Shown: positions 5,199 to 61,190 of the stretch, piece by piece
How the letters are laid out: each line of letters opens with the position of its first letter
How positions within the stretch are numbered: position 1 is the first letter of the stretch
From: an uncultured Bacilli bacterium
Lineage (GTDB): Bacteria > Bacillota_I > Bacilli_A > RFN20 > CAG-826
Assembly (NCBI GenBank): GCA_944327845.1
Contig: CALVHN010000001.1
Coordinates: forward strand, 9,149 to 73,148
DNA: 64,000 bases
Direction: 5' to 3'
Program-made: the position numbers and the translations under genes
Notes under the pieces: model-generated
Told to the model about the DNA's origin: nothing
Database searches by the model: none
The model's input: only the letters and a program-made list of their open reading frames with translations

Positions 5199-6482
5199 AT
5201 GGCAGATTTTGTAAATGTTATTGGTGGCGGACTTGCTGGATCTGAAGCAGCTTATTTTTTAGCAAATCATGGTATTAAAGTTAAACTATATGAAAAAAGA
5301 CCACTGGTAAATTCTCCTGCTCATAACACCTCCTTATTTGGGGAACTTGTTTGTTCAAACTCTCTAAAATCACAAGCTTTAACTAATGCATGTGGGCTTT
5401 TAAAGGAAGAAATTAAGCATTTAGATTCATTAATTATTGAAGCTGCGCAAACAAGTAAAATTGAAAGTGGAGATTCACTTGATGTTGATAGAGATATTTT
5501 TGCTAATTACATAACTAGTAAGATAAAAAGCCATAAAAACATTGAAATTATTAATGAAGATGTTTCTGTGCTAAATCTAAACGAAAAAACAATTGTTTGT
5601 ACAGGTCCTTTAACTTCTGAATCTCTTGTTGAATATATTTCAAGTTTAGTTGGAGAAAAGGTTTTCCATTTCTTTGATGCAAGTGCTCCTATTATTAAAA
5701 AAGAATCAATCGATAGTTCAAAAGTTTTCACAAAATCTCGCTACGACCATGGAGAAGGAAAATACATAAACTGTCCAATGAATAAGGAGCAGTATCTAAG
5801 CTTTTATAACGAATTAATAAACGCAAAAAAAGCTCATGTTCATTCTTTTGATACTAATTACTTTGAAGGTTGTTTACCTATTGAAGTTATTGCAAGCAGG
5901 GGAGTCGATACTTTAAGATTTGGTCCTTTAAAACCAGTTGGTTTAGAAAACGAAGGTAAAAGTTATTATGCTGTTGTTCAATTAAGACAAGACGATTTAA
6001 TTGGAAACTTTTATAATTTATTAGGTTTTCAGACAAATTTAACTTACGGTGAACAAAAAAGAGTTTTCTCGATGATTCCTGGACTTGAAAATGCAAAATT
6101 TGTCCGTTATGGAACAATGCATAGAAATACATTTCTATATTCACCAAAAATGCTTGATGATTTTTTAAGATTAAAAAAATTTAAGAATATTTATATTGGT
6201 GGTCAATTAAATGGTGTTGAAGGCTACGTCGAATCTGCTGCAACAGGATTATTAGCAGCTTATTATTGCTTTGCTGACATTAAAAAAATTCCAATAAAAA
6301 AATTATCTTTTTACACAATATTAGGAGCTTTAGTTAATTATATTACACATACTGGGGTGAATAATTTTCAACCAATGAATGCAAATTTTGGTATAATTTA
6401 TAAAGCATCAACTACACCAAAAGAAGAAATTATAAATCGTTCATTAACGTTAATTAATGACTTTAAAAAGCAATTTATTTAA
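5199..6482 (+). CDS. trmFO: methylenetetrahydrofolate--tRNA-(uracil-5-)-methyltransferase TrmFO (Gid)
   Basis: FAD-binding 'VIGGGLAGSEAAYFLANHGIKVKLYE' and the conserved topA-trmFO-xerC order. Confidence 0.85.
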   Translation: MADFVNVIGGGLAGSEAAYFLANHGIKVKLYEKRPLVNSPAHNTSLFGELVCSNSLKSQALTNACGLLKEEIKHLDSLIIEAAQTSKIESGDSLDVDRDIFANYITSKIKSHKNIEIINEDVSVLNLNEKTIVCTGPLTSESLVEYISSLVGEKVFHFFDASAPIIKKESIDSSKVFTKSRYDHGEGKYINCPMNKEQYLSFYNELINAKKAHVHSFDTNYFEGCLPIEVIASRGVDTLRFGPLKPVGLENEGKSYYAVVQLRQDDLIGNFYNLLGFQTNLTYGEQKRVFSMIPGLENAKFVRYGTMHRNTFLYSPKMLDDFLRLKKFKNIYIGGQLNGVEGYVESAATGLLAAYYCFADIKKIPIKKLSFYTILGALVNYITHTGVNNFQPMNANFGIIYKASTTPKEEIINRSLTLINDFKKQFI

Positions 6483-7384
6483 TGAATTTACTAGAAGAAA
6501 AATTTTTAGAACATTTAAAATTAAATCTCAATTTTAGCAATTATACTTTAATTGCTTATAAGCATGATATCGATGTTTTCTATGATTTTGTTAATGAGAA
6601 AGATTTGGATTTTGAAAATTTTTCTCGAACTAACATAAGAGATTTTATTAAATATCGACTAGATAAAAAAGATTCTATTAGAACTGTTAAAAGAAGAATA
6701 TCTGCTTTAAATAAATTTTATGAATATCTAGTAAAAAATAATTATATCCAAACAAATAATTTTGTTGGAATTAGGTTAAAATCGCGCGAAAATACTCTTC
6801 CTAATATATTATTTGAATCCCAAATTAATAGGCTTTTAGATGAAAATAATAAAAGAACCGATTTTTACAAAGAAAGAGATCAAGCAATATTAGAATTGAT
6901 GTTTTCTAGCGGTATAAGGTGCTCTGAAACAATTAATTTAAAACTAACTGACGTTAATTTTAGTTTAAATGTTGCTTTAATTAATGGTAAAAGGAACAAA
7001 CAAAGATATGTTCCATTTTCTCCTAACGCAAAACAGGCATTAATTTCGTATATAGAAAATACAAGAAAAGTTTTAATGAATAAAAGTCCAAATTATGAAG
7101 ATAAAAAATATTTATTTTTAAATAAAAATGGTTCGAAATTATCTGCTCGTGGTCTTGAATATATTTTTAAAACTATTACTTTAAAAACAGGTATTTCTTT
7201 TGATTTTAGCTTTCATCCTCACTCCTTAAGACATACTTTTGCAACACATTTATTAAACAATGGGGCGGATATAAAAACAATTCAAGAATTATTAGGACAC
7301 TCATCCTTAAATACGACACAAATTTATACACATGTTTCACTTGAGAAACTTAAAGAAGATTATAATAAGTATTTTCCTAAGTAG
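6482..7384 (+). CDS. xerC: tyrosine site-specific recombinase XerC/CodV
   Basis: C-terminal catalytic box 'HSLRHTFATHLLNNGADIKTIQELLGHSSLNTTQIYTHV' (R..H..R..Y) and a position equivalent to Bacillus codV. Confidence 0.75.
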   Translation: MNLLEEKFLEHLKLNLNFSNYTLIAYKHDIDVFYDFVNEKDLDFENFSRTNIRDFIKYRLDKKDSIRTVKRRISALNKFYEYLVKNNYIQTNNFVGIRLKSRENTLPNILFESQINRLLDENNKRTDFYKERDQAILELMFSSGIRCSETINLKLTDVNFSLNVALINGKRNKQRYVPFSPNAKQALISYIENTRKVLMNKSPNYEDKKYLFLNKNGSKLSARGLEYIFKTITLKTGISFDFSFHPHSLRHTFATHLLNNGADIKTIQELLGHSSLNTTQIYTHVSLEKLKEDYNKYFPK

Positions 7385-14742: not shown

Positions 14743-17700
14743 ATGAATAATCGAGTTGAAAGATTTTTAAAATCGTTAAATATCGAGAATATTGAAGATT
14801 TTGATTTAGATTTTGATAAAATTTTAAAACCTTATTCTGATAGAAATTATTTTATTTATTATCTAAAAAAAGATTCTTTATGGGATTATCATTTATTTGA
14901 AGAATTTTTAAATGGTATAAATTCGATTACATCTTATACTTGCGATATTTATTTTGAATATACTTGTGATTTTAACTTTGATAGTGTAATTAATTTTGTT
15001 AAAGAATGGTTATTTTCGCGTACATCTAAAGATATAAATTTTGAATGGAATAATGTTGAAAATAAGATTTTATTTTCTTTTAAAAATGAATTAGATAAAC
15101 AAGAATTTAACAAAAATATTGAGGATTTGCGCAGTTTATTTCAATATTTAAACTATAATTATATTTTAGAGATCCAAGATGTTTTTATTAAAGAGAATAA
15201 AAATGAAGAAGAAAATCATCAATCAAATTTAGAACTTTTACTTGGGAAAGAGGATGATGCAAACGATATAAAATTAGAAGATGTTAGTAATAAATTAAAT
15301 AGTGAATTTAATAAAATTAAAGAAGACTCTGAAGAAGAATTACATAAAGCATTAGAAGATAATTACATGAGAATGCTTGAAGAAAGATTACAAAAAACTA
15401 GATTTAAAAAAGGTGGCTATGTTCCAATAGATAAACTAATAAATATTGACGGAAATAATTTATCGGTAGATGTAAATGGAAAAACTTTTGATGTTGATGA
15501 AAAATTAAATACAACTCAAACTGGTAAAAAGAAGATAAGATTTGGTATATCAGATGGCACAAGTGCAATTTACTGTAATGCTTTTGAAGGTGGTAGCTTA
15601 TCATTAGATACAATAAAACAAATAAAAAACAAAATTAATGTAAGAATACTTGGAAGATTAGTTTTAGATTCTTATAACAAAGAATATCAAATCAATGTTC
15701 ATGAAATAGATTTATTACCTGATGATAAATTAAGAGAAGATCATGCAGAAACTAAAAGAGTTGAACTTCATTTACATACAAATATGTCTGAAATGGATGG
15801 AATTACTTCAATTACTGATTATGTAAAGCTTGCTAAAAATATGGGACACAAGGCAATTGGATTAACAGACCACGCTGTAGTTCAATCATTTCCTGAAGCA
15901 GCAAGTGCTTCAAAAAAATATGGTGTTAAAATTTTATATGGTTGTGAAGTTTATATGATTAACGATTATTTAAAGGGTTGCTTTAATCCTAATAATCAAT
16001 CAATAAAAGATTCTACATATGTTGTATTCGATCTTGAATCAACTGGTTTAAGTGTAAAATATGATAAAATAACCGAGTTTGGCGCGGTTAAATATAAAAA
16101 TGGTATAGAAATTGATAGATTAAATATCTTAATTAATCCTGGAGTTCATATTTCAGACTTTATTGCAAAAAAGACTCATATTGATGATGAATTAGTAAAA
16201 AATGAAAAGAAGATTGATGAAGTTTTACCAACAATTAAAGAGTTCATTAAAGATTCAGTTTTAATTTCACATAATCTTGAATTTGACTACTATTTATTAA
16301 ATCAAGCTTTTGTTGATAATGGATATGAAAAACTTTCTCAACCAGGTATAGATACATTAGCTTTATCTAGATTTTTATTTCCACGAAAAAGAGGACACTC
16401 TTTAAAAGAATTATCAAGAGAATTAGAAGTTGAATATGATGAAGAAAGTGCACATAGAGCAACATATGATGCTAGTGTTTTAGGTTCTTGTTGGCATGCT
16501 ATTTATGAAATGTTAATTAAGGATAAAAAGATATTAACTTTAAAAGAATTAGAGAATCTAGAAATACCTAATGAGTATTTAAATCATATACGTAGAGGAG
16601 CATTTCATACCACTATTTTTGTAAAAAACCGTGCAGGTCTCAAAGATTTATATAATTTAGTTAGAATGTCACATGTTGAAACATTGGGCTATTATCCTTT
16701 TGTAAAAAGAAGTGAAATTGAAAAAAGGAGAGATAATTTCCTTATTGGAAGTGCTTGTTTTAATGGCGAAGTTTTTTATAACAGTTATCGTCGAAACAAA
16801 GATAAACTTATTGAAGCTATTAAATTTTATGATTTTATCGAGATTCAACCTTTAGGTAATTATTCTCATTTAGTATTTAATGGCGAAATACCAAATGAAG
16901 AAATGTTAAAAAAATATATTCTTGATATTATAGAAGCTTCTAAATCATTAAATAAAATAATTGTTGCAACAGGAGATGTACATTATGCAGAAAAAAGCGA
17001 TAAAAAATATCGTGATGTTTTAATTGAAACTCCTGGTGTTGGAAAAAAATGGCACCCTCTTGCTCATAGTCCTTTTAGTAAAAAAGAAGATGATGAGGGA
17101 GATTCTAATTCAAGAAGTTATTTTCCAAACCCTGATCAACATTTTAGATCAACAGAAGATATGCTTGATTGCTTTAAATGGTTAGGAGATGACGGCTATC
17201 AATATGTTGTTACTAATACTAATTTAATTGCCGATATGATTGAAGAAATTCAACCTATTCCACCTGGATTATATCCTCCAAAAATTAAAGATAGTGAGAA
17301 AATTTTAAAAGATTTATGCTATAAAAGAGCTCATGAATTATATGGTGAAAATTTACCTGAATTAATTAAAGATCGTCTTGATAAAGAATTAGAAGGTATC
17401 ATCTCAAATGGTTATTCTGTTATTTATTATATTTCGCATCTTTTAGTTAAAGAGTCGAATGATAGAGGCTATATTGTTGGAAGCAGAGGTTCTGTTGGTT
17501 CTTCTTTTGCTGCTACTATGGCATCAATTACTGAAGTTAATCCTTTAGCACCACATTACTGCTGTCCAAAATGTAAACATTTTGAATTTGCTAATATTCC
17601 TGGAATTACAAGTGGATTTGACCTTCCTGAAAAAAGATGTCCTAATTGTGGAGAAATAATGATTAGTGATGGACAATCTATTCCTTTCCAAACGTTCTTA

Positions 17701-37914: not shown

Positions 37915-38595
37915 ATGTACTTACTTAATAAGATAAAAAATATTGCTATTCCACTTTTAGGATTTACTACATTAGTTTCAACAGGGTTTGGAGCATGGGT
38001 CTTTCTTGGATCCATGTCCAGCTCTTATGAAATTAGATCAACTCAAGTAAATGTTACAAGAGTTAATGATTCTATAGGTAAGCTTGAAATCAATGATAGA
38101 ATCCATCTTTATGAAACTCCATATATTTTAACTTTTGAAGTTGGAAGTGGAGAGGATTTTACAAGTAGTGAAGTTGGTGTTGAGCTTTCAAATAATATTG
38201 AATATAAATTCTATGAGTTTTATCAACCAGAAGAGAATTATGGATATTATTTAAGCTATAGAGTTATTTATAGTGCAAATAGTATTTATGATCAATATGT
38301 TGTAATAAAGGATTTAGCAAATTCTGGAACTAATGAAGCAGATGGAAGATTATATCAAGAATCTCATCAAATTTTATTAGATTCAAGGTTATTTAATGAA
38401 TCATCTACTTTAGATAAAGCAAATAATCCTTATTATGAACTTAATGATGATTTATACATTGACTTTAATTGGAAAGAACATACAAAACCAATTACCGCAA
38501 GTGCATATAATGCATTTTTATCTTCAGTACATGATTCAAGTATCAATTTACCAATCGAAATTGAATTAAAAATTACGTATCAACGAATAAATTAA
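37915..38595 (+). CDS. secreted protein with a 'TGFGAWVF' signal-peptide motif
   Basis: N-terminus 'MYLLNKIKNIAIPLLGFTTLVSTGFGAWVFLGS'. Second of three same-strand genes sharing the motif. Confidence 0.6.
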   Translation: MYLLNKIKNIAIPLLGFTTLVSTGFGAWVFLGSMSSSYEIRSTQVNVTRVNDSIGKLEINDRIHLYETPYILTFEVGSGEDFTSSEVGVELSNNIEYKFYEFYQPEENYGYYLSYRVIYSANSIYDQYVVIKDLANSGTNEADGRLYQESHQILLDSRLFNESSTLDKANNPYYELNDDLYIDFNWKEHTKPITASAYNAFLSSVHDSSINLPIEIELKITYQRIN

Positions 38596-50134: not shown

Positions 50135-50758
50135 GTGGAGAAAAATATGAAAAAATTTACATCAATTTTAACATTATGTAGTTTATTTATTTTAGTAGGT
50201 TGTTCTTCAAATATACAAAATAATGATGAAGCTGGGGGAGAACAAGAAACCCCAATATATCAAGATGGTAATGCAATTGTTGTTTATTTTTCAGCTACAG
50301 GTAATACTGAAAATGTTGCTAATTATATTAGTGAACATATTGAAGCTCCATTATATGAACTAGAACCTGTTGATCCATATACATCAGAAGATTTAAATTA
50401 TTCAAATCAAAGTAGTCGAGTTGTTCTTGAACATAATGATCCTAATAGACATGTTGAACTTGAAACTGTTACATTCGAAGGATTTGATGAAGCTAGTTAT
50501 ATCTTTTTAGGAGCACCAGTATGGTGGCAAGAACTTAGTTGGGTTGTTGATGATTTTGTTGAACTAAATGATTTTACAAATAAGACAATTATTCCTTTTG
50601 CAACCTCTTCTTCATCTAGTTATTCAATTGATAATTTAAAGGAATTAGCTCCTGAAGCAACCTGGTTTGATGAAACAAGATTTTCTTCTAGAGTTAGTGA
50701 ATCTCAAGTTATTGAATGGGTTGATAGCTTAGGAATTGATTTTAGAAGTGAAAATTAA
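50135..50758 (+). CDS. flavodoxin-family lipoprotein
   Basis: Lipobox 'FILVGCSS', then flavodoxin motifs 'IVVYFSATGNTENVANYI' and 'GAPVWW'. Confidence 0.6.
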   Translation: MEKNMKKFTSILTLCSLFILVGCSSNIQNNDEAGGEQETPIYQDGNAIVVYFSATGNTENVANYISEHIEAPLYELEPVDPYTSEDLNYSNQSSRVVLEHNDPNRHVELETVTFEGFDEASYIFLGAPVWWQELSWVVDDFVELNDFTNKTIIPFATSSSSSYSIDNLKELAPEATWFDETRFSSRVSESQVIEWVDSLGIDFRSEN

Positions 50759-50769
50759 GAAAGAGATAA

Positions 50770-51700
50770 ATTGAAGTTGTTTCTTTTTAGAAATTCAAAT
50801 ATTACTTCAATTGTTTACCTAATAGTATAAGAGAAATTGGAAATAATGCTTTTTATAATTGTTTTAATTTAAAAAAGTATTAATGCGTTTTCGGGGTATA
50901 ATACTTTAGAAAATATTAATATCCCTGCTAAAGTTAACTTAATTTTAGAAAATTCCTTTAATAATTGTTCTTTAATTAATTTTGATGTTGATAATGATAA
51001 TAGGAATTATTATTCATTAAATGGTTATCTTATTAAAAGAAGTAGTAACACTTTAATTAGAACTAGACAAATGGTGTTATTCCTGAATGAGTTTTAATTA
51101 TTGGGTATAAAGCTTTTATAAATTCAACATTACCTTCAATATCTTTTCTAGTCTAGTTAATGAAATTGCTTCTAATGCCTTTTATTTTAATGATAATTTA
51201 AAAGGTATAAATGTTGATTAAAATAATGAATTAATATAATGTTCCTTTAGGAATTGAAGGATATATTGAATTATTAAATATAAATATAATTTCAAGTTTT
51301 TCTATTTGAGGATGTAGATTAACTTTTATTATCAAGGTATTTTAGAAGAATGGAATTTAATTAAAAAACATTCTACATAGAATATAAATATAAATATTGA
51401 TGTTGAATATTTATATTAAATAAAGGGAGAAGATATAATGAAATTAAATATATTTATCAATTAGATAAAATGATGAATATTATGGAAGTGAAACTTTAAT
51501 AAATGGTTATAATAAGATAGTTAATATATATCTTAATAAAGGTTTAAATATTAAAACAGTAAATCAATTAGTAACATTAGATGTTAAATCTCATTCATAT
51601 TTTTAGATAATGGAGTTACTTATGAACATGGTGTAACTAATCTGTATGCTCACGATGAAAAGATAATGGGATAGTTGTTTGATTGATAAAAATTTACAAA
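50770..51700 (+). pseudogene. decayed BspA-type leucine-rich-repeat surface-protein pseudogene
   Basis: Frame fragments 'LPNSIREIGNNAFYNCFNLKK', 'INIPAKVNLILENSFNNCSLINFDV', and 'YYSLNGYLIKRSSNTLIRT' are typical BspA-like LRR units. Frequent stops in all frames. Confidence 0.4.
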
Positions 51701-51826
51701 AATAGATTATTTTTACAAGGTTTTTAATGAAAATATCGATTCTGTATTTTTATAAATTATTATTTATTTTTTAAATATTTTTTGGTTTATAAATGGTATA
51801 ATATTATAAATTGTTAATTAATTAAT

Positions 51827-51891
51827 AAAAAAGTCCTGAAGCCAGGACATATGTGATGACATAAGTTTTATTTGAACTTGTTATGTTATCT
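51827..51891 (-). ncRNA. tracrRNA of the type II-A system (predicted)
   Basis: Minus-strand RNA 'AGAUAACAUAACAAGUUCAAAUAAAACUUAUGUCAUCACAUAUGUCCUGGCUUCAGGACUUUUUU'. Its 5' part pairs with the CRISPR repeat as a 12-bp upper stem (GUUAUGUUAUCU), a bulge, and a 5-bp lower stem (UUUGA), the same architecture as the S. pyogenes repeat:anti-repeat duplex. A terminal hairpin GTCCTG-AAGC-CAGGAC plus U6 lies at 51827-51848. -35 TTGACT is at 51921-51926 and -10 TATTAT at 51898-51903, with a 17-nt spacer, both on the minus strand. Confidence 0.6.
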
Positions 51892-51931
51892 ATAAAAATA
51901 ATAATTCTTAAAAATAAAGGAGTCAAGTTTT

Positions 51932-54900
51932 ATGGCAGAAAAGTTGTTATTAGGTTTAGATATTGGAACTAATAGTGTTGGTTGGTGTTTAACAGATGAG
52001 AATTCGAAAATAATAAAAAAGAATGGAAAATATTTATGGGGAATTAGATTATTTGATGAATCTAAATCATGTAAAGATAGAAGAATTTATCGATCAACAA
52101 GAAGGAGATGTGCTAGAAGAAAACAAAGGTTAGCATTACTCCAAGATTTATTTGAAAAACCGATGTCTAAAATTGACCCATATTTTTTTAGAAGGCTTAA
52201 GGTTTCTCAAATTAAAAACGAAGATAGAAATGATGAATTTAATTTGAGTGAATATAAAAATAAATATTTATTCTCTGACCATCAAGAAGAAATAGAATTT
52301 TATAACAAATATCCAACAATCTATCATCTAAGATTAGCTTTAATTAATTCTAACGAAAAAATCGATTTAAAATATTTATATTTAGTCTGCGCACATTATA
52401 TTAAATATCGTGGGCATTTTTTATTCGAAGGACAAGATTTTAATGTTGAAAACGGTGCAAGCATTGCACAAAGTTTAAATTGTTTATTAAATGAAGATAA
52501 TGAAAATAATGTTTTGTTTGAAACTAAGGATCTCGATGAAATATATGATATTTATTCAAATAAAAAATTAGATAAAAAAGATAAAGTTAATAAAATTAGA
52601 GATTATTTATTTAATAAAGTTTATGAAGTAAATAATGATGAAAATGAAAAAATATATTTAGGATATATTGCTCAATTATTTTTAGATTCTAAAGTTGATG
52701 CTAAAAAAATTTATAAAGATAAGGACTTAGATTTAGATAATACAACAATAAGTTATGATTCTGATGATTTTGATTCGATTATTGATGAATTAATAAACGT
52801 CTCTTCTGATTATGATATAGATTCATCTTTTTTTGAAAATATAAAGGAATTAAAGAAAGTATATGATTACTTAAAGTTAAAAAATATTTTAGGAGATTCG
52901 ATTTATATATCAGAAGCAATTGTTAAAAGATTTGATAAACATAAGGAAGATTTAATAAAGTTAAAGAATTTTGTAAAAACAAATTTTGATAGAGAAACAT
53001 ATAAGAAGGTATTTATAAATGTTGATGATAAAGTTTGTAATTACCCTCATTTTGTCGGTTCTTCTTTAGTTAAAGGGAAAAAGAAAACAATTTCAAAATG
53101 TAAAAAAGATGATTTTTATAAATTTTTAGAAACTACATTAAATATTAAAAGAAATGAAATAGTTAAAGAAGAAAATGAATTAAGTGATAAAGAATATATT
53201 GAAAAAAGAATGTATGATGGAACTTTTTTAGAATTATTACGTTCAAGTCAAAATAGATTTATACCTTATCAATTAAATAAAAAAGAATTAGAAATTATTT
53301 TAAATAATCAATCTAAATATTATGAATTTTTAAATGAAAGTGATGATTATGGAACAGTTAAAGATAAAATAATAAGTTTATTAACATTTAAAATCCCATA
53401 TTATGTTGGTCCATTAAACGAATCTAGTAAATTTGCTTGGATTAAGAAAAAACAAAATCAAAAAATTACTCCTTGGAATTTTAATGATATTGTTGATAAA
53501 GATGCATCTGAAAATGAGTTTATTAAACGAATGGCAAATCATTGTTCTTATTTGTTCAAAGAAGAAACCTTGCCTAAAGAATCACTTCTTTATCAAGAAT
53601 ATGAACTTTTATCTACATTAAATAAACTTTATATAAATAATCAGCCAATAACTAATGAGATAAAAACTTTCTTAATTGATGTATATAAAAATAGAGGTAC
53701 TAAAATTAGTTTAAAAGATTTAAAAAGAATAATTAGTGATAGATTTGGTGATGGAAATGAAATAATTTTAACGACATCCAATGATAAAGAATTAGATGAA
53801 AATTATTTATCCGATTCTTTAAGTTCTTTTAAAAAGTTTTCTAATATTTTTGGAAAAAATTATGTTGAAAGTAATGTTGAAAAAATTGATCAAATAATTT
53901 CAATATGTACAATTATATCTGATAAAAATAGATTAAAAGATTATTTAATAAAAGAATTTAAATTGAATGAAGAGGATGCAATTAAAGTATCTAAATTAAA
54001 GTTTTCTAAATTTGGTAGACTTTCAAATAAACTTCTCTGTAAGTTAAAAGGAATCGATTCAAAAACTGGTGAAGTTATATGTGATAAGAGTATTATCCAA
54101 TTAATGAGAGAAACTAATCAAAACCTTATTGAAATTATAAATAATAAAAAATATGGCTTTCCTGCAGCAATTAATTTAGAAAATAGCGAATTTTTAAAAG
54201 AAAAATATGGAAATAAAGAATTATCTGATGAACAAAAGATTTTAGATTTCATTGATAAACTTTATATTTCTCCAAAATTAAAAAGACCATTAATTCAAGC
54301 AATGAAGATTATTAATGAACTTGAAAATATAATGGGTTCAAAAGAAAAAGGTAAAAGGTCAATCGATGAATATTATATTGAAGCAACTAGAGGACCAGAT
54401 ATAAAAGCAAAAGGTAAAGCAACAAAAAGTAGAAGGCAAAAGATGCTCGAAATTTATAAAGATGCAAAAGATTTTGTCGATGAATATGATAGCAGCAAAG
54501 CAATTTTATCTAATTTAAATGGAGTTGAGGATTCCAGATTAAATAGTAAAAAAGTTTTCTTGTATTTTAGACAATTAGGAAAGGATCTTTATACTGGTAA
54601 TCCAATTGATTTTGATAGATTAGAAACTGATTACGATATTGATCATGTATTTCCTCAATCTAAAATTAAAGATGATAGTTTTGATAATTTAGTTTTAACT
54701 TTAAAGGAAAATAATTCAGATAAAGGTGATATATATCCAATTCCTTATGATAGTTTTCGTGAAAAGCATAATTGGTCTAGTAAAATAAGAAATAGATTTT
54801 TTGAAAAACTGCATAAAAATAAATTTATAAGTGAAACTTTATATCATAGATTAACAAGACTAACTCCATTAACTGAAAATGAATTATTTAATTTTGTTAG

Positions 54901-56260
54901 TTCTCAAATAACAACTACATCTCAAGCAGTTAAAGCAATTAAAGATACAATATTGCAGTTTAAAACTAATAACGAAAATAAAGAGCCTGCTGTAATTTTA
55001 TCGAAGGCTCAAGTTATATCAGATTTTAGAAAGAATCATGATTTATTAAAATGTAGAAAAGCTAATGATTTTCATCATGCTCATGATGCTTATTTAAATT
55101 TGATTGTTGGAAGAGCCGTCAATGAGTATTTTACTAAATATATTGCTAGAAAATCTTATTTAAAGAATTTTGATATTTCTAAAAAATTAACAACAAATAT
55201 TAATAAATTTTTAGATAGTAAAGATTCTAAAGGCAGTGATTTAAATAGACCTAATATATATGATGGAGATTATCTAGTATGGGATTATAAAGATGAGAAA
55301 ACTTTGAATGAAATAAAATATAATATTTATCATAATTTTAATATTTTACATACAGTTAGAACTTATGAAAAAGCTGGTATATTTTCTCAAGTAACAATAT
55401 CTCCAAGCAATCCAAAAGGTTATGCATTATCAATTAAAAATTCAATAGGAAACCCATTATCTAATTCAATTAAATATGGCGGATATTCACAATTATCTTT
55501 TGCATATATGATGCTAATCAAAAACTTAGATAAAAATGATAAATATTTATTAATTATGGTTCCGAGTATTTATAAGGATAAATTGGAAACAAAGGAATTT
55601 AACGATTATGTTTTTGAAGAATATAATGTTAAAAATTTTGATATTATTTTACCCAAACTAAAAATAAACACACTGATTAAAGAAAACGAATCTGAGTTTA
55701 GGATAACAGGCAAAGCAGATGTAAGACTTGCATTAAAAAATAATAAATATGTGTTTTATAACGAGGATTATATTAAAACAATCAAAAATCTTTTTAAAAT
55801 AACAAATAAAATTTCTGAAATTGTTATCAATAAAAAATATAAAAATATTGATGCTTATATTAACGATAATTACAAACAAACATCTTTCGGAATTTATTTT
55901 GATGAAGAATTTATAAAATTAAACGGCGAAACTCTTATTACTAAAAGACAAATTGTAGATTTAAGTAATTTTTTGAAAAAAATTATAAAAAATAAGATAT
56001 ACGATTATGCTAGAAGTAGTTATGATACTATGGATAATTATTTGTCTTATGATAATGATTTATCTTTAATCAAAAATATGCTTATTTTAAAAGAGTGTAT
56101 TAATCGTTTACGAGATTCTTCTTTGACATTTAATCTCAAAGCGTTTGGAAAAGGAGTTATTTCAAGAGAAAGAATGCAATCGAATATTTCAAAGAAAATT
56201 TCAATAATTTATGAATCAACTACAGGATATTATCGAAAAGTTGTCTGGAGCAATGAGTAA
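51932..56260 (+). CDS. cas9: Cas9 (type II-A), 1442 aa
   Basis: RuvC-I 'GLDIGTNSVGW', arginine-rich bridge helix 'RRRCARRKQR', HNH 'DIDHVFPQSKIKDDSFDNLVLTLKENNSDKGD', and RuvC-III 'HHAHDAYL'. Followed by cas1-cas2-csn2 and the array. Confidence 0.95.
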   Translation: MAEKLLLGLDIGTNSVGWCLTDENSKIIKKNGKYLWGIRLFDESKSCKDRRIYRSTRRRCARRKQRLALLQDLFEKPMSKIDPYFFRRLKVSQIKNEDRNDEFNLSEYKNKYLFSDHQEEIEFYNKYPTIYHLRLALINSNEKIDLKYLYLVCAHYIKYRGHFLFEGQDFNVENGASIAQSLNCLLNEDNENNVLFETKDLDEIYDIYSNKKLDKKDKVNKIRDYLFNKVYEVNNDENEKIYLGYIAQLFLDSKVDAKKIYKDKDLDLDNTTISYDSDDFDSIIDELINVSSDYDIDSSFFENIKELKKVYDYLKLKNILGDSIYISEAIVKRFDKHKEDLIKLKNFVKTNFDRETYKKVFINVDDKVCNYPHFVGSSLVKGKKKTISKCKKDDFYKFLETTLNIKRNEIVKEENELSDKEYIEKRMYDGTFLELLRSSQNRFIPYQLNKKELEIILNNQSKYYEFLNESDDYGTVKDKIISLLTFKIPYYVGPLNESSKFAWIKKKQNQKITPWNFNDIVDKDASENEFIKRMANHCSYLFKEETLPKESLLYQEYELLSTLNKLYINNQPITNEIKTFLIDVYKNRGTKISLKDLKRIISDRFGDGNEIILTTSNDKELDENYLSDSLSSFKKFSNIFGKNYVESNVEKIDQIISICTIISDKNRLKDYLIKEFKLNEEDAIKVSKLKFSKFGRLSNKLLCKLKGIDSKTGEVICDKSIIQLMRETNQNLIEIINNKKYGFPAAINLENSEFLKEKYGNKELSDEQKILDFIDKLYISPKLKRPLIQAMKIINELENIMGSKEKGKRSIDEYYIEATRGPDIKAKGKATKSRRQKMLEIYKDAKDFVDEYDSSKAILSNLNGVEDSRLNSKKVFLYFRQLGKDLYTGNPIDFDRLETDYDIDHVFPQSKIKDDSFDNLVLTLKENNSDKGDIYPIPYDSFREKHNWSSKIRNRFFEKLHKNKFISETLYHRLTRLTPLTENELFNFVSSQITTTSQAVKAIKDTILQFKTNNENKEPAVILSKAQVISDFRKNHDLLKCRKANDFHHAHDAYLNLIVGRAVNEYFTKYIARKSYLKNFDISKKLTTNINKFLDSKDSKGSDLNRPNIYDGDYLVWDYKDEKTLNEIKYNIYHNFNILHTVRTYEKAGIFSQVTISPSNPKGYALSIKNSIGNPLSNSIKYGGYSQLSFAYMMLIKNLDKNDKYLLIMVPSIYKDKLETKEFNDYVFEEYNVKNFDIILPKLKINTLIKENESEFRITGKADVRLALKNNKYVFYNEDYIKTIKNLFKITNKISEIVINKKYKNIDAYINDNYKQTSFGIYFDEEFIKLNGETLITKRQIVDLSNFLKKIIKNKIYDYARSSYDTMDNYLSYDNDLSLIKNMLILKECINRLRDSSLTFNLKAFGKGVISRERMQSNISKKISIIYESTTGYYRKVVWSNE

Positions 56261-57132
56261 TGGGTTTTAGAACAGTAGTGGTTAAAAATAGATCTAAATT
56301 AGAAGTTTCATTAAACTATTTAGTTTGCAGAACTGTTGATGGAGAAAAAAGAATTTTACTCGATGAAATTGCTACTGTTTTAATTGAATCAACACAAGTT
56401 GCAGTTACTAGTTCTTTACTTTCAGCTTTGGCTGAAAAAAATATTAATTTAATTATTTGTGATTCTAAACATAATCCAGTTTCACAAATGTTAAGTTTAT
56501 ACGGAAGTTATGATGCTTATCATAAACTATTAAAACAATTATCTTTTAGCGAGGAAAGAAAAGGTAATATTTGGGCTGCAATTATTAATAGAAAAATATT
56601 AAATCAATCTCGTGTATTAGAGATTTCTAATAAAGAAGATAGTTATAAAAAACTACTTGAATATGCTTCAGAAATTGAACGAGGTGATATAACAAATAGA
56701 GAAGGACATGCAGCCAAAGTTTACTTTAATAGTTTATTTGGAAATGAATTTTCGAGAAATCAAGAAAGAAAAGAAAATAAATATCTAGATTACGGTTATT
56801 CAATAATTTTAAGTTCTGTTTCTAGAGCAATAAAGTGTATAGGTTATTATACTGAATTAGGTGTTCATCATATTGGTAAAACGAATCCATTTAATTTATC
56901 TTGCGATTTTGTTGAACCTTTAAGACCTTTGATTGATTATCAAGTTGTTTCAAATAAAGTTAATGATGAAAATTATAAAAATACATTTGTCGATATATTA
57001 AGTTTAAATGTTGACTGTGATAATAAAAATATGCTTTTGGATAATGCTATAAAAACGTATGTTCAGTCATTATTTAATGCTTTAGATAATAATGATATAA
57101 GCAAAATAAAGTGGATTAATTATGAGCTCTAG
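56260..57132 (+). CDS. cas1: Cas1 (type II)
   Basis: 'GFRTVVVKNRSKLEVSLNYLV' N-terminus typical of type-II Cas1. 290 aa. Overlaps the cas9 stop. Confidence 0.9.
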   Translation: MGFRTVVVKNRSKLEVSLNYLVCRTVDGEKRILLDEIATVLIESTQVAVTSSLLSALAEKNINLIICDSKHNPVSQMLSLYGSYDAYHKLLKQLSFSEERKGNIWAAIINRKILNQSRVLEISNKEDSYKKLLEYASEIERGDITNREGHAAKVYFNSLFGNEFSRNQERKENKYLDYGYSIILSSVSRAIKCIGYYTELGVHHIGKTNPFNLSCDFVEPLRPLIDYQVVSNKVNDENYKNTFVDILSLNVDCDNKNMLLDNAIKTYVQSLFNALDNNDISKIKWINYEL

Positions 57133-57442
57133 ATTTATGAGATTAGTATTATTTTTTGATTTACCTGTTATTAAAACTTCTCAAAGAAAAGCTTATACAA
57201 AGTTTGTTAAAGATATAAAGAAAATTGGATTTTATATGTTACAAGAATCTGTATATATTAAGATGTGTTTAGATTCACAAGCTTCAAATTCAACTATAAA
57301 CAAAGTGAAGGACTTAGCGCCAAGCGAAGGTAGTATAATGATTTTAATGGTTACTGAAAAAGAATTTTCAGAAATGAAAGTCGTATGTGGAGAAAGTATA
57401 TCAGATGTTATTACTACTTCAGATAGGGTTGTAGTATTATGA
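57122..57442 (+). CDS. cas2: Cas2
   Basis: 106 aa, 'MRLVLFFDLPVIKTSQRKAYTKFVKDIKKIGFYMLQESVY'. Overlaps cas1. Confidence 0.9.
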   Translation: MSSRFMRLVLFFDLPVIKTSQRKAYTKFVKDIKKIGFYMLQESVYIKMCLDSQASNSTINKVKDLAPSEGSIMILMVTEKEFSEMKVVCGESISDVITTSDRVVVL

Positions 57443-58095
57443 TTTTAAAGTTTAGAGGAATTAATTATTCTTTTGAATATTGTGGTGGAGATATTTCTTT
57501 TTTAGTCATTGAAAGTAGAGAATTTTACTGGAAGCTTTTAAATTCTTTAAATGAATTAAATGAAGATAATATATTTTTAATAGATGATAAAAAGATTGAT
57601 TTAAAAAATGCGATTTTATTTTTTGATAGATTATTCGATTTGGATCCAAATAGTAAAAAAATACTATCCTTAACTTATCAAGATATAAATAAAATGTATT
57701 TAAATGATTCAATCAAAGTTAAAATAAGTGTAGCTAATGAAATACTTTTAGGAATTTTAGATAAGTTAGCTCTTGATGTTGATTTTAAGGCTAGATATGA
57801 AAGTGATTTAACATTGAATGATGTTTTAAATTTATATAAATTTAGATATGAAATTGAATCTAAATCTTTTATTGAAATGTTTCTTCAATATATAAAATCG
57901 TTGATGGTTGTTATGAAATATAAGTATGTTGTGACATTAAATTTATTAGACTTTATTGATAAAAATAATCTAGATTTGCTAAGTAATGAGTTAAAAATAC
58001 TAGGTTTAGACTTAATTGATATTTCAAGACACTCTTATAAATTAGAAAAATATAAAGAAATTCTTATTGATAATGATTTATGCGAAATATCGTAG
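57439..58095 (+). CDS. csn2: Csn2 (type II-A signature protein, short form)
   Basis: 218 aa, placed between cas2 and the array and overlapping cas2 by 4 nt. Confidence 0.8.
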   Translation: MILKFRGINYSFEYCGGDISFLVIESREFYWKLLNSLNELNEDNIFLIDDKKIDLKNAILFFDRLFDLDPNSKKILSLTYQDINKMYLNDSIKVKISVANEILLGILDKLALDVDFKARYESDLTLNDVLNLYKFRYEIESKSFIEMFLQYIKSLMVVMKYKYVVTLNLLDFIDKNNLDLLSNELKILGLDLIDISRHSYKLEKYKEILIDNDLCEIS

Positions 58096-58098
58096 TAA

Positions 58099-58225
58099 AA
58101 TTATATTGATAAAATAAATTTTATCAAAAAATAAAGACGAATTATGTCTTTATTAAAGTTATTGTTTCAAGCCTAAAACAGGTAATTAATTCTAAAATCT
58201 CTGTTATTTGTTTATATAATTTGAG
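58099..58225 (+). promoter_or_regulatory. CRISPR leader
   Basis: AT-rich 127-bp region between the csn2 stop and the first repeat. Confidence 0.5.
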
Positions 58226-59571
58226 GTTTGAGAGTTATGTTATCTACGGTCGGTCTTGAACAACTAGAAGAAGATGTTTTAATGACTTATAGTTTGAGAG
58301 TTATGTTATCTACGGTCGGTCTTGAACTCAAGTTACGGATACACCGTTCCTTCAGTGTTTGAGAGTTATGTTATCTACGGTCGGTCTTGAACTTGAGATT
58401 GAGGTGCTTTTGCAAAATGATTGTTTGAGAGTTATGTTATCTACGGTCGGTCTTGAACATTTATTCTTTTCCGTTCTAGTAATTTTTTGTTTGAGAGTTA
58501 TGTTATCTACGGTCGGTCTTGAACATTATTTGGAAGTTCTGTTGCATCAATATAGTTTGAGAGTTATGTTATCTACGGTCGGTCTTGAACTACTTTAATA
58601 TGTAAAATGTTGTTCATCCGTTTGAGAGTTATGTTATCTACGGTCGGTCTTGAACATAACATCTTTACAAGGATCTTGCACACAGTTTGAGAGTTATGTT
58701 ATCTACGGTCGGTCTTGAACATATCTTGTTCATAGACTTGTCCATCTTCAGTTTGAGAGTTATGTTATCTACGGTCGGTCTTGAACTGTCTTTGATTTTT
58801 AAATCTGTCATAATTGTTTGAGAGTTATGTTATCTACGGTCGGTCTTGAACTAAAACTGGCATCATTTCCTTGATTATATTGTTTGAGAGTTATGTTATC
58901 TACGGTCGGTCTTGAACACTAATTCCTTTGCATTTGGTCCTATTGTGTTTGAGAGTTATGTTATCTACGGTCGGTCTTGAACCCTAGAAAGTATAATAAT
59001 TTTATGGATTAGTTTGAGAGTTATGTTATCTACGGTCGGTCTTGAACTTTTGTTCATTCTTTAGTCCTCCTATTGATGTTTGAGAGTTATGTTATCTACG
59101 GTCGGTCTTGAACTTAAACTGGCGTTTTACCTTGATTATATAGTTTGAGAGTTATGTTATCTACGGTCGGTCTTGAACAGTCTGTTCTTCTAAAATACTT
59201 GCCTGTGTGTTTGAGAGTTATGTTATCTACGGTCGGTCTTGAACAAGAACGATTTGAGGTGCTCACGGTATCTGTTTGAGAGTTATGTTATCTACGGTCG
59301 GTCTTGAACGCATCGTTTGTATCTTGGCTTGTGCTTTTGTTTGAGAGTTATGTTATCTACGGTCGGTCTTGAACATATTTCTACAAGCACATTTACTACA
59401 ATTGGTTTGAGAGTTATGTTATCTACGGTCGGTCTTGAACTTACTTTCTTTGATATAATAATTCTAGGCCGTTTGAGAGTTATGTTATCTACGGTCGGTC
59501 TTGAACCATTATCTAGATTAATCCATTCGCTACCGGTTTGAGAGTTATGTTATCTACGGTCGGTCTTGAAC
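58226..59571 (+). CRISPR. CRISPR array of 21 x 36-bp repeats (GTTTGAGAGTTATGTTATCTACGGTCGGTCTTGAAC) with 20 spacers of 29-30 bp
   Basis: Repeats counted directly at 58226, 58292, 58357, 58423, 58489, 58555, 58620, 58685, 58751, 58816, 58882, 58947, 59012, 59078, 59143, 59209, 59274, 59339, 59405, 59471, and 59536. All repeats are identical, including the last. Confidence 0.97.
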
Positions 59572-59602
59572 TCTTATATATTGTTAATCACGGATATAAA
59601 AT

Positions 59603-61190
59603 GTACATAAGGGGGATGCGGATATTTTTTTAGACTAATATTGATTATAATTTAACATAAATTCTTTTGGGGATAAATATCCTAATCGTCTCTTAATTCG
59701 TTTATTTTTAAACCAGATTAAATATTTTTCTAATTCTGTAATAAAATCATCACATGTTGTATATTTCCAATCATTTGGATAAAAGAACTCATTTTTAATT
59801 GTTCCAAAGAATCCTTCACACATTGAATTGTCTGGAGAACATCCCTTTCTAGACATAGATCTTTTATAACCATATTGTTCCATTAGCTTTATCCAAGAAT
59901 CTATTCTATAATGGAAACCTCTATCGCTATGAATTAGTATCCCGCAATCACCAATAATTTCATGAGCTTCCTTTAACATTTTATTAGTTAATTCAGAATT
60001 AGGAGATTTACCAATTCTCCAAGTAATAGGAGAACCATCGAAGCAATCAATAAGAGGGGACAAATAAACTTTACCATCTTTTAATGCGAATTCAGTTATA
60101 TCTGTAAGAGCTTGTTTATATGGTTTATTCACAATAAATTTTCTATTAACTAAGTTTTCAACTTGTGGACTTATTTCACCTTTATAAGAAGAGTACTTGA
60201 GTTTTGATTTTGGCATATAAACAAATAATTTTTCTTCTTTCATTAACCTAATAATCACTTTTTCAGAAATAACAACTCCATACGATTTTGACAACTCTTG
60301 TTTTACTCTTCTATATCCATAACATTCATAATTATTAAAAAATATTTCTTTAATGATTTTCCTTATAATTAAGTATTTATCAAAGTTTAGTCTTTTTATT
60401 TCATAAAAATATGTTGAACGTTTTAAATGAATTATTTTAAGCAACTCATTGATTTTATATTCTTCTTTTAAGGCGTTGATTATTTGAGTTTTTTCTTTAT
60501 TGCTTAATAGAGAATAATCAACGCCTATTTCTTTTTTTAATATTTCGTTTGCTTTTTTTAGAACTTTATTTTCAAGTTCGAGTTTTAAATGTTCTTTTCG
60601 AAGAGCTATTATTTCTCTTTCAAGTTCTTGTTTTGATTTATCTTTCTTTTTCATAATTGGTTCACCAGTTAGTTCTTTTTGCCACTCATATAAAGTAACT
60701 CTAGTAACATTATACTTATTAGCAACAGTAATTGCTGACGAATCTCTTAAAACTAAATCAACAATTGCTTTTTTCATATTTTCATCGTCCAATATCGTTG
60801 GCTTTTTATGAATTTTATGTTTTCTGGTCCATCTTTTATCTTTTTTTACCCATGATTTTAATGATGAAGGGGATGGATAACCAAATTTTCGGCATGCTTT
60901 AGTTATGTTTTCACCATGACTAAAGTAGTATTCTATTACAGACTCTTGTTCCTCTTTACTCCATTTTGATGATTTATTCCTCTTTCTTGAAATTAAGGGT
61001 TCTCCCTTTTTTCTTTTATCTCTCCAAGATCTTAATGTATAGCGATTAATCCCTAATGCTTTTGCGGTTTTAGATAATTGTCCATCATAGGTATCTAACA
61101 AATTTAATGCTTTTTCAATTTCTTCTATTTTGTGCATACTTGTCCTTTCTATTTAGTCCAAGTTTTTGTCTGCACTCCCTTTTGGTTAAA
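59603..61190 (-). mobile_element. IS3-family insertion sequence (about 1.6 kb) with imperfect terminal inverted repeats
   Basis: A single 500-aa transposase gene. Imperfect ~35-bp inverted termini: left '...AAGGGGGATGCGGATATTTTTTTAGACTAATAT' against right reverse complement '...AAGGGAGTGCAGACAAAAACTTGGACTAAATA'. Boundaries are approximate. Confidence 0.55.
59635..61137 (-). CDS. IS3-family transposase, fused OrfAB form
   Basis: Three N-terminal helix-turn-helix units, a leucine zipper ('LELENKVLKKANEILKKE'), then an rve DDE integrase core ('HSDRGFHY', '...CSPDNSMCEGFFGTIKNEFFY'). Confidence 0.75.
   Translation of the reverse strand: MHKIEEIEKALNLLDTYDGQLSKTAKALGINRYTLRSWRDKRKKGEPLISRKRNKSSKWSKEEQESVIEYYFSHGENITKACRKFGYPSPSSLKSWVKKDKRWTRKHKIHKKPTILDDENMKKAIVDLVLRDSSAITVANKYNVTRVTLYEWQKELTGEPIMKKKDKSKQELEREIIALRKEHLKLELENKVLKKANEILKKEIGVDYSLLSNKEKTQIINALKEEYKINELLKIIHLKRSTYFYEIKRLNFDKYLIIRKIIKEIFFNNYECYGYRRVKQELSKSYGVVISEKVIIRLMKEEKLFVYMPKSKLKYSSYKGEISPQVENLVNRKFIVNKPYKQALTDITEFALKDGKVYLSPLIDCFDGSPITWRIGKSPNSELTNKMLKEAHEIIGDCGILIHSDRGFHYRIDSWIKLMEQYGYKRSMSRKGCSPDNSMCEGFFGTIKNEFFYPNDWKYTTCDDFITELEKYLIWFKNKRIKRRLGYLSPKEFMLNYNQY

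Follow-up and report, generated by a model that had tools for sequence, protein, structure and literature searches.

Which DNA encodes the guide-RNA partner of a newly sequenced Cas9, and how can it be recognised from the genome? Every Cas9 system needs a trans-activating CRISPR RNA (tracrRNA), a small helper RNA. We addressed the question for a type II-A locus in a stretch of 64,000 nucleotides (nt) from contig CALVHN010000001.1 (hereafter termed the window). The DNA comes from a gut species of the Bacilli that has not been cultured, and the G+C content of the window is 25.4%. The locus consists of cas9, cas1, cas2 and csn2, all four of which score above the cut-offs of their NCBIfam models, and of an adjoining CRISPR array. 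The minus-strand segment that runs from 51893 to 51827, directly upstream of cas9, is very probably the tracrRNA gene of this locus; transcription and processing of the RNA, as well as its binding to Cas9, are predicted. The gene lies in the position that is normal for type II-A systems and completes the parts list for a Cas9 without a close characterised relative.

The elements of the predicted gene are listed in Table 1. [quoted passage not shown] Such a match on the cas9 strand means that an antisense RNA carries an anti-repeat. The stretch differs from the repeat by G1 to A, by C22 to T and by ACTT (51876-51879) in place of GA. A preliminary description of the same DNA had recognised this stretch, had let it begin at 51869, 2 nt too early, and had reported a 3-nt change at the bulge, which is incorrect: four nucleotides replace two, and there are two substitutions at the ends. 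Its other structural claims, namely a minus-strand tracrRNA next to cas9, a TTGACT-17-TATTAT promoter and a hairpin followed by six U residues, are supported by the results below. The anti-repeat lies approximately 38-39 nt upstream of the cas9 ATG in intergenic DNA, where no open reading frame (ORF) of at least 60 amino acids (aa) overlaps it. Four of the six base pairs (bp) of the terminator stem are G-C pairs, and within 50700-52100 (1.4 kb) it is the sole terminator-like site, compared to 0.1 in shuffled sequences. Read from the plus strand, the hairpin lacks a U-tract behind it, and termination should therefore be one-directional, with read-through expected on that strand.

Table 1. Coordinates of the predicted tracrRNA gene, of the cas9 start region and of the type II-A locus in the window.
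Feature	Position	Strand	Details
Predicted tracrRNA primary transcript	51827-51893	-	about 65-67 nt, AUAGAUAACAUAACAAGUUCAAAUAAAACUUAUGUCAUCACAUAUGUCCUGGCUUCAGGACUUUUUU; start placed from the -10 box (purines 51893, 51891, 51890), end at the U-tract
Anti-repeat upper stem UAGAUAACAUAAC	51880-51892	-	pairs with repeat positions 9-21; exact 13-mer, co-fold, covariation in 39 loci
Bulge AAGU	51876-51879	-	faces repeat GA; co-fold; A/G-AGU motif kept in relatives and in FrCas9 single-guide RNA
Anti-repeat lower stem UCAAAU	51870-51875	-	pairs with repeat positions 1-6, G:U first; helix 1 paired in 99.6% of cells (39 loci)
AAA junction and nexus-like stem-loop AC-UUAU-GU	51859-51869	-	same register as the nexus of relatives
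Intrinsic terminator GUCCUG-GCUU-CAGGAC + U6	51827-51848	-	hairpin 51848-51833, T6 51832-51827
Predicted tracrRNA promoter	51898-51926	-	-35 TTGACT (51926-51921), 17-nt spacer, -10 TATTAT (51903-51898); 10/12 match
Shine-Dalgarno sequence of cas9, AAGGAG	51917-51922	+	9 nt before ATG 51932; overlaps tracrRNA -35 box by 2 nt
Candidate cas9 promoter, extended -10 TGGTATAAT	51794-51802	+	24 nt past the tracrRNA 3' end; poor -35; would read through the tracrRNA gene
cas9	51932-56260	+	1442 aa; TIGR01865, 707 bits; ATG at 51932
cas1	56260-57132	+	NCBIfam TIGR03639
cas2	57122-57442	+	NCBIfam TIGR01573
csn2	57439-58095	+	NCBIfam TIGR01866
CRISPR array	58226-59572	+	21 identical 36-nt repeats GTTTGAGAGTTATGTTATCTACGGTCGGTCTTGAAC; 20 spacers of 29-30 nt

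We then asked whether such an arrangement could be a chance resemblance in AT-rich intergenic DNA, at a locus that is inactive or lacks a tracrRNA. Gapped local alignment to the repeat gives the candidate the best score of the window (27.0), but shuffled sequences of 64 kb reach 24.5-30.5, so that repeat similarity alone is not significant. Moreover, promoter-like hexamer pairs are not enriched in the AT-rich region (14 found, 15.3 expected from shuffles). Two elements stand out singly. One is the terminator mentioned above, and the other is the 13-mer GTTATGTTATCTA, which is found in the window only at the 21 array repeats and at 51880-51892, with about 0.16 sites expected even if one mismatch is allowed. 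Since the repeat match and the hexamers alone are within chance, the significance of the candidate rests on its position and on comparative tests.

For these tests we fetched 80 loci whose Cas9 is 29-40% identical to the window Cas9 and whose repeats are all of the GTTTGAGAGT... type. When the 400 nt upstream of cas9 were compared with the repeat, the best match was on the cas9 strand in 46 loci, among them that of the window. In these loci it ends 32-111 nt before the cas9 ATG (median 50), and a T-run of at least five follows the 3' hairpins in 43 of them. Thus, the antisense arrangement upstream of cas9 recurs in 45 related loci. Common to the related RNAs are the ACGAGU/AAGU bulge, the UCAAAU segment and a UAAA-nexus. 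A profile hidden Markov model (nhmmer), trained on the 5'-terminal 52 nt of 41 related RNAs with the window sequence left out, matches the window at 51889-51842 on the minus strand with an E-value of 1.4e-7, whereas the next best match has an E-value of 0.54 and the array repeats are not matched.

Repeats and anti-repeats of 39 loci were moreover placed in a gap-free alignment in which the pairs were stated explicitly. In this alignment 93.6% of the repeat:anti-repeat cells pair, and compensatory changes are seen in 13 of the 18 pairs. Covariation scores 0.463, compared to 0.138 in shuffles and at most 0.113 in controls with slid partners. The covariation figures are inflated, since each relative's anti-repeat had been selected for its resemblance to the repeat of that locus. 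The mean duplex energy in the related loci is -28.0 kcal/mol for cognate and -11.6 kcal/mol for non-cognate combinations, and the nexus stem of the relatives covaries modestly (0.344 versus 0.182 in shuffles). Alignment of ten single-hairpin relatives by MAFFT, followed by RNAalifold, gave no consensus structure, the hairpins being misaligned by 1 nt. After this failure the nhmmer profile and the gap-free alignments were used instead of a covariance model. Strains of the same species (L001-L005) were dropped as a source of covariation. They have the same cas genes, and their DNA upstream of cas9 is identical bar one base, so that it carries no covariation information.

The arrays of these strains are informative in another respect. 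L002 has spacers 5-7 and 10-20 in common with the window, whereas the four leader-proximal, newest ones are absent, and the three other strains (L001, L004 and L005) have no spacer in common with the window. These differences at the leader end indicate that acquisition is ongoing and leader-polarised, and they fix the orientation of the repeat. They also indicate that the system is in use in nature, and a tracrRNA must therefore exist. An active locus, a profile built from relatives that hits exactly the candidate site, and an exact 13-mer, a terminator and a promoter that lie together within 100 nt beside cas9 all argue against a chance resemblance, which we regard as extremely improbable in spite of the unremarkable alignment score and hexamer count.

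Four of the related loci (L009, L014, L015 and L042), from uncultured gut Bacilli or Erysipelotrichales with a Cas9 37-39% identical to that of the window, have predicted tracrRNAs of 64-67 nt with a window-like layout. The order they have in common with the window is anti-repeat, CGAGU/AAGU bulge, UCAAAU, UAAA-nexus, ..CAUA.. linker, one hairpin and U-tract, whereas the sequences of the upper stem and the hairpin differ. In L014 and L042 the -35 box of the promoter is found within 2-6 nt of the ATG, and that of the window is likewise in the cas9 start region, whereas in L009 and L015 it is located 41-65 nt upstream. Most relatives form longer hybrids, which extend to repeat position 25-30, while that of the window reaches position 21.

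Co-folding of the predicted RNA with the repeat, one of the checks proposed in the preliminary description, gives a lower stem of seven pairs (G1:U first), a GA/AAGU bulge and a 13-bp upper stem, with a duplex energy of -20.4 kcal/mol. The hybrid is followed by an AAA junction, a small stem-loop and the terminator hairpin; type II-A guide RNAs have their modules in this order. Features of tracrRNAs given by Faure et al. are a G:U start of the lower stem, an A/AA junction and a nexus 1-3 nt past the hybrid (PMC6546382). The nexus-like stem AC-UUAU-GU has only two Watson-Crick pairs, and a rival hairpin, UAUGU-CAUC-ACAUA (51851-51864), is predicted when the anti-repeat is occupied. A repeat-GAAA-tracrRNA fusion folds as a single-guide RNA should (z=-6.7), in line with the earlier suggestion that the locus provides the information for such a design. 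Finally, the Rfam tracrRNA model RF02348 aligns end to end (positions 1-92) at 51826-51912 on the minus strand with 22.7 bits, which corresponds to an E-value of 4.6 over 4227 families and of about 1e-3 for that family alone.

Several results, besides the alignment score and the way in which the anti-repeats of the relatives were chosen, weigh against assigning this RNA as the tracrRNA. The Rfam score is far short of the gathering score of 70 bits, which places the RNA outside the curated family as built; the functional class of tracrRNAs is wider than the RF02348 model. The hybrid is short, AU-rich and weaker than the mean of the relatives, and far weaker than the published type II-A median of -47.6 kcal/mol (PMC6546382). 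Among 46 repeats, the cognate one ranks just second for the window anti-repeat. The nexus-like stem comprises 2-3 pairs in all, and many of the related loci are mutually non-independent, several being close kin. In an energy-only scan of the window by RNAduplex, four sites outrank the candidate: 51831-51880 on the plus strand, 16826-16880, 7116-7170 and 38046-38095. We rejected this ranking as unsuited to AU-rich anti-repeats; the higher sites are G-U-rich or interrupted, and they are situated in coding sequence or lack tracrRNA modules. A plus-strand segment at 7139-7159, TTATCTGCTCGTGGTCTTGAA, resembles the 3' half of the repeat and lies inside an ORF of 300 aa (6482-7384); this resemblance is most likely due to chance.

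The energies raise the question whether the true partner of the CRISPR RNA (crRNA) is encoded elsewhere, either by the plus strand at 51843-51870, which can pair with repeat positions 4-33 by means of G-U pairs, or by the leader at 58165-58199. With -24 to -25.7 kcal/mol for the former and -19.0 kcal/mol for the latter, these duplexes equal or surpass that of the candidate. However, both pairings are interrupted and depend on G-U pairs, and neither segment has a nexus, a terminator or modules for Cas9 binding. The complementarity of 51843-51870 is absent in 42 related loci (-10.3 kcal/mol for cognate versus -10.2 kcal/mol for non-cognate repeats). The leader segment, in turn, sits on the pre-crRNA itself and fits the leader-repeat hairpin described for type II-A arrays rather than a trans-acting RNA (PMC12080349). 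We therefore consider a partner at either site highly improbable. The interval between csn2 and the array had been named in advance as a place where a better anti-repeat might be found; the search there returned this leader segment, which we rejected as a tracrRNA site since it has no terminator and its pairing is the known hairpin.

Two observations on these segments are added here. The 3' part of the CRISPR leader (58165-58199, plus strand) can pair with the first repeat (58226-58261), and similar plus-strand anti-repeat-like stretches are found directly upstream of many related arrays, e.g. at 13939-13965 in L012 and at 16104-16132 in L081. Within the 51843-51893 region, the part of the tracrRNA past the anti-repeat, made up of nexus, linker and the 5' terminator arm, also resembles the repeat, which explains why the plus strand at 51843-51870 can pair with the repeat. 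This is an outlier reached by 0.3% of shuffles; among the related loci it is seen in the RNA of this species only, being absent in 42 relatives, and may be a relic of the origin of the tracrRNA gene.

It is also conceivable that the repeat-like stretch is a decayed orphan repeat which acts, if at all, on the plus strand, as a crRNA-like or regulatory RNA in the 5' leader of cas9. It is oriented as the array repeats are, the upstream extended -10 element could drive plus-strand transcription across it, and CRISPR loci are known to contain regulatory elements that resemble a single repeat outside the array (bioRxiv 10.1101/2023.03.03.530964). Moreover, the plus strand folds better than the minus strand (-11.2 kcal/mol, z=-3.3, versus -5.0 kcal/mol), by virtue of a 10-bp hairpin between 51855-64 and 51881-90. 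This hairpin, however, is not conserved among the relatives, whereas the U-tract after the terminator hairpin, the TTGAC[AT]-17-TAnnnT promoter, the AAGU bulge and the UAAA-nexus are all minus-strand features and all conserved. No other tracrRNA candidate was found in the locus, and a plus-strand transcript could coexist with a tracrRNA without replacing it. An orphan repeat in place of a tracrRNA gene is thus very unlikely.

For the tracrRNA gene the following sequence of events can be proposed. The sigma-70-type promoter TTGACT-17-TATTAT would initiate transcription at about 51893-51890, so that the 5' end of the RNA would be the anti-repeat itself, and the GUCCUG/CAGGAC hairpin with its U6 tract would end the transcript, resulting in an RNA of about 65-67 nt. 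The 5' 24 nt of this RNA would base-pair with the first 21-22 nt of every pre-crRNA repeat, forming a lower stem led by a G:U pair and an upper stem of 13 bp, with the asymmetric GA/AAGU bulge between them. RNase III would presumably cleave this duplex, and, as is the case for other type II-A systems, the AAA junction, the nexus-like stem and the 3' hairpin would hold the RNA in Cas9. A long form analogous to the streptococcal long tracrRNA (tracr-L), starting at a promoter-like site inside cas9 (52075-52048), was considered and rejected because it shows no guide-like fold; in the hypothetical 215-nt form from about 52041 the anti-repeat is left without a repeat-like partner.

The predicted tracrRNA promoter reaches into the ribosome-binding site (RBS) of cas9, and we therefore surveyed the zone between the anti-repeat and the cas9 start in 43 loci. 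The best minus-strand promoter has a mean score of 10.4 out of 12, compared to 7.4 on the opposite strand and 7.4 in shuffles. At least 10/12 is reached in 33 of the 43 loci (opposite strand: three) and at least 11/12 in 23 (opposite strand: none), and a TTGAC[AT] -35 hexamer is present in 36. In most loci the 5' end of the -35 box is located 0-26 nt upstream of the cas9 ATG, either between the Shine-Dalgarno sequence and the ATG or on the Shine-Dalgarno sequence. The promoter predicted in the window is thus backed far more by conservation than by its own hexamers, and, judged from these sequences, the overlap of promoter and RBS is a trait of the Cas9 clade and not peculiar to the window genome. 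The overlap of the -35 box with AAGGAG had been described correctly; the potential mutual interference of tracrRNA and cas9 transcription that was suggested there does not follow from the overlap as such, since a -35 box in DNA over an RBS that functions in RNA is in itself no conflict.

Where, then, is cas9 transcribed from? The tracrRNA promoter fills the last ~35 bp before the cas9 ATG, and the cas9 promoter is thus most likely found further upstream. In the window, the extended -10 element TGGTATAAT is a candidate. In the related loci (L007-L085), cas9-directed promoter motifs cluster within about 100 nt past the end of the tracrRNA gene, with a distance of 6-62 nt between the end of the -10 box and the tracrRNA 3' end. 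Extended -10 elements (TGnTATAAT) and perfect TTGACA-17-TATAAT promoters account for many of these motifs. Across 41 loci the mean score of the cas9-directed strand just past the tracrRNA 3' end is 9.7, with seven loci scoring at least 12. The other strand of the same zone scores 8.7 (one locus of at least 12) and the same strand 110 nt further out 8.0 (none), while shuffles score 8.5. Wilcoxon p-values for these comparisons lie between 1.6e-3 and 1.6e-6. This suggests that in this clade cas9 may be transcribed antisense through the tracrRNA gene. Transcription from the TGGTATAAT promoter, if it occurs, would give cas9 a leader antisense to the entire tracrRNA, and the two promoters would be convergent, with overlapping rather than simply divergent transcription units. 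An alternative weak plus-strand promoter, TTGTTA-16-AATAAT (51878-51905), shares the -10 region and would give a leader of about 20 nt.

These elements can be combined into a circuit that we put forward as a tentative and rather doubtful possibility. A strong tracrRNA promoter would lie on the RBS and start of cas9, and the cas9 promoter (TGGTATAAT) just past the terminator, yielding a leader of about 120 nt that is the exact antisense of the whole tracrRNA. The two convergent promoters, ~100 bp apart, might interfere, and the duplex of leader and tracrRNA might be a substrate of RNase III, such that Cas9 and tracrRNA would be balanced in a manner unlike that of streptococcal tracr-L. A literature search for the two cas9-promoter arrangements, antisense read-through and a shared -10 region, found neither described in the papers it covered. 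RNA-seq signal for tracrRNAs antisense to predicted cas9 mRNA is reported in a metatranscriptome preprint.

The surroundings of the locus were also inspected. The leader between csn2 and the array is 130 nt long. Within the array (spacers 58262-59535), spacer 10 is a variant of spacer 14, and spacers 3 and 16 are in part variants as well; a single target region may thus have been sampled repeatedly. A protospacer search of a viral collection for a protospacer-adjacent motif (PAM), using the seed regions of spacers 1-3 and the common core of spacers 10 and 14, gave zero exact matches. In the region 59573-61137, the gene of an IS3-family transposase (59635-61137, minus strand) begins about 60 nt past the last repeat; as this repeat is not degenerate, the insertion may have cut off the trailer end of the array. 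On the other side, most of the 1.17-kb gap between a flavodoxin gene and the tracrRNA gene (approximately 50790-51700) is occupied by stop-ridden remnants of a BspA-type leucine-rich-repeat gene (e.g., LPNSIREIGNNAFYNCFNLK and NYYSLNGYLIKRSSNTLIRT).

The window Cas9 is 100% identical to one metagenome protein, and its best relatives outside its own 90% cluster or species are 39-41% identical. Contigs that carry this cas9 are present in the sample sets ERZ24773417, ERZ24773548, ERZ28614132 and ERR4096501. For a Cas9 this isolated, the predicted RNA and the repeat together form a full guide scaffold. A single-guide RNA can be written down directly, as repeat nt 1-20, GAAA and the 65-nt RNA from 51891, and is predicted to fold as designed. 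As an element the tracrRNA at its usual place is of a kind already known, and the possible antisense coupling of cas9 leader and tracrRNA is the sole lead of wider interest. A promoter on the translation-initiation region of cas9 raises the question of how cas9 is transcribed and whether the overlap with the tracrRNA sets the level of Cas9, a question that is clade-wide and modest.

How does the predicted gene compare with characterised systems? Among Cas9 proteins of solved structure, FrCas9 from Faecalibaculum rodentium is closest to that of the window (9JWK, 533 bits, versus 364 bits for SpCas9). Its tracrRNA, about 71 nt long, is encoded upstream of cas9; small-RNA sequencing showed that it is transcribed against the direction of the cas genes and that the mature crRNAs consist of a 21-22 nt spacer and 20 nt of repeat (PMC8931148). 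Its single-guide RNA contains a GUUUGA/UCAAAU lower stem and a bulge with ..GAGU (PMC12926199; cryo-EM 9JWK/9JWN). Both systems are type II-A with csn2, have repeats beginning with GTTTGAG and an antisense upstream tracrRNA, and combine a GUUUGA:UCAAAU lower stem with a bulge and an AU-rich upper stem, the sequence of which differs between the two and follows the respective repeat. The nexus and distal region of the FrCas9 RNA are longer (CAGGCUCCUAGAGAGAUCCGAAC...), whereas the window RNA has a minimal nexus-like stem of 2-3 bp and a single 3' hairpin. The FrCas9 RNA has been validated experimentally, while that of the window is predicted from sequence.

In Streptococcus pyogenes, a gap of about 200 bp separates the tracrRNA gene from cas9, and the cas9 promoter is situated between the two genes. 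The short tracrRNA of this species (RF02348), like that of the window, is encoded upstream of cas9 on the opposite strand, the characteristic position in most type II-A loci (Chylinski et al., PMC3737331). Both RNAs have the same module order of upper stem, AAGU bulge, U.AAAU lower stem, UAA junction, nexus and terminator; unlike the S. pyogenes RNA, that of the window lacks stem-loop 2. Moreover, the 39 nt from the anti-repeat to the ATG leave no room for a long form, unlike in S. pyogenes, and according to one published study the spacing between tracrRNA and cas9 is on average ~200 bp shorter in loci without the long form. The long form, tracr-L, acts as a natural single guide and represses the promoter of cas9 (Workman et al., bioRxiv 10.1101/2020.05.21.102756). 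It requires a second upstream promoter, a repeat-like lower stem and, next to a PAM, a match of 11-15 nt to the cas9 promoter; the 38 nt available in the window have room for none of these. What the window has in common with tracr-L is that adjacent divergent genes would link transcription of the tracrRNA to expression of cas9.

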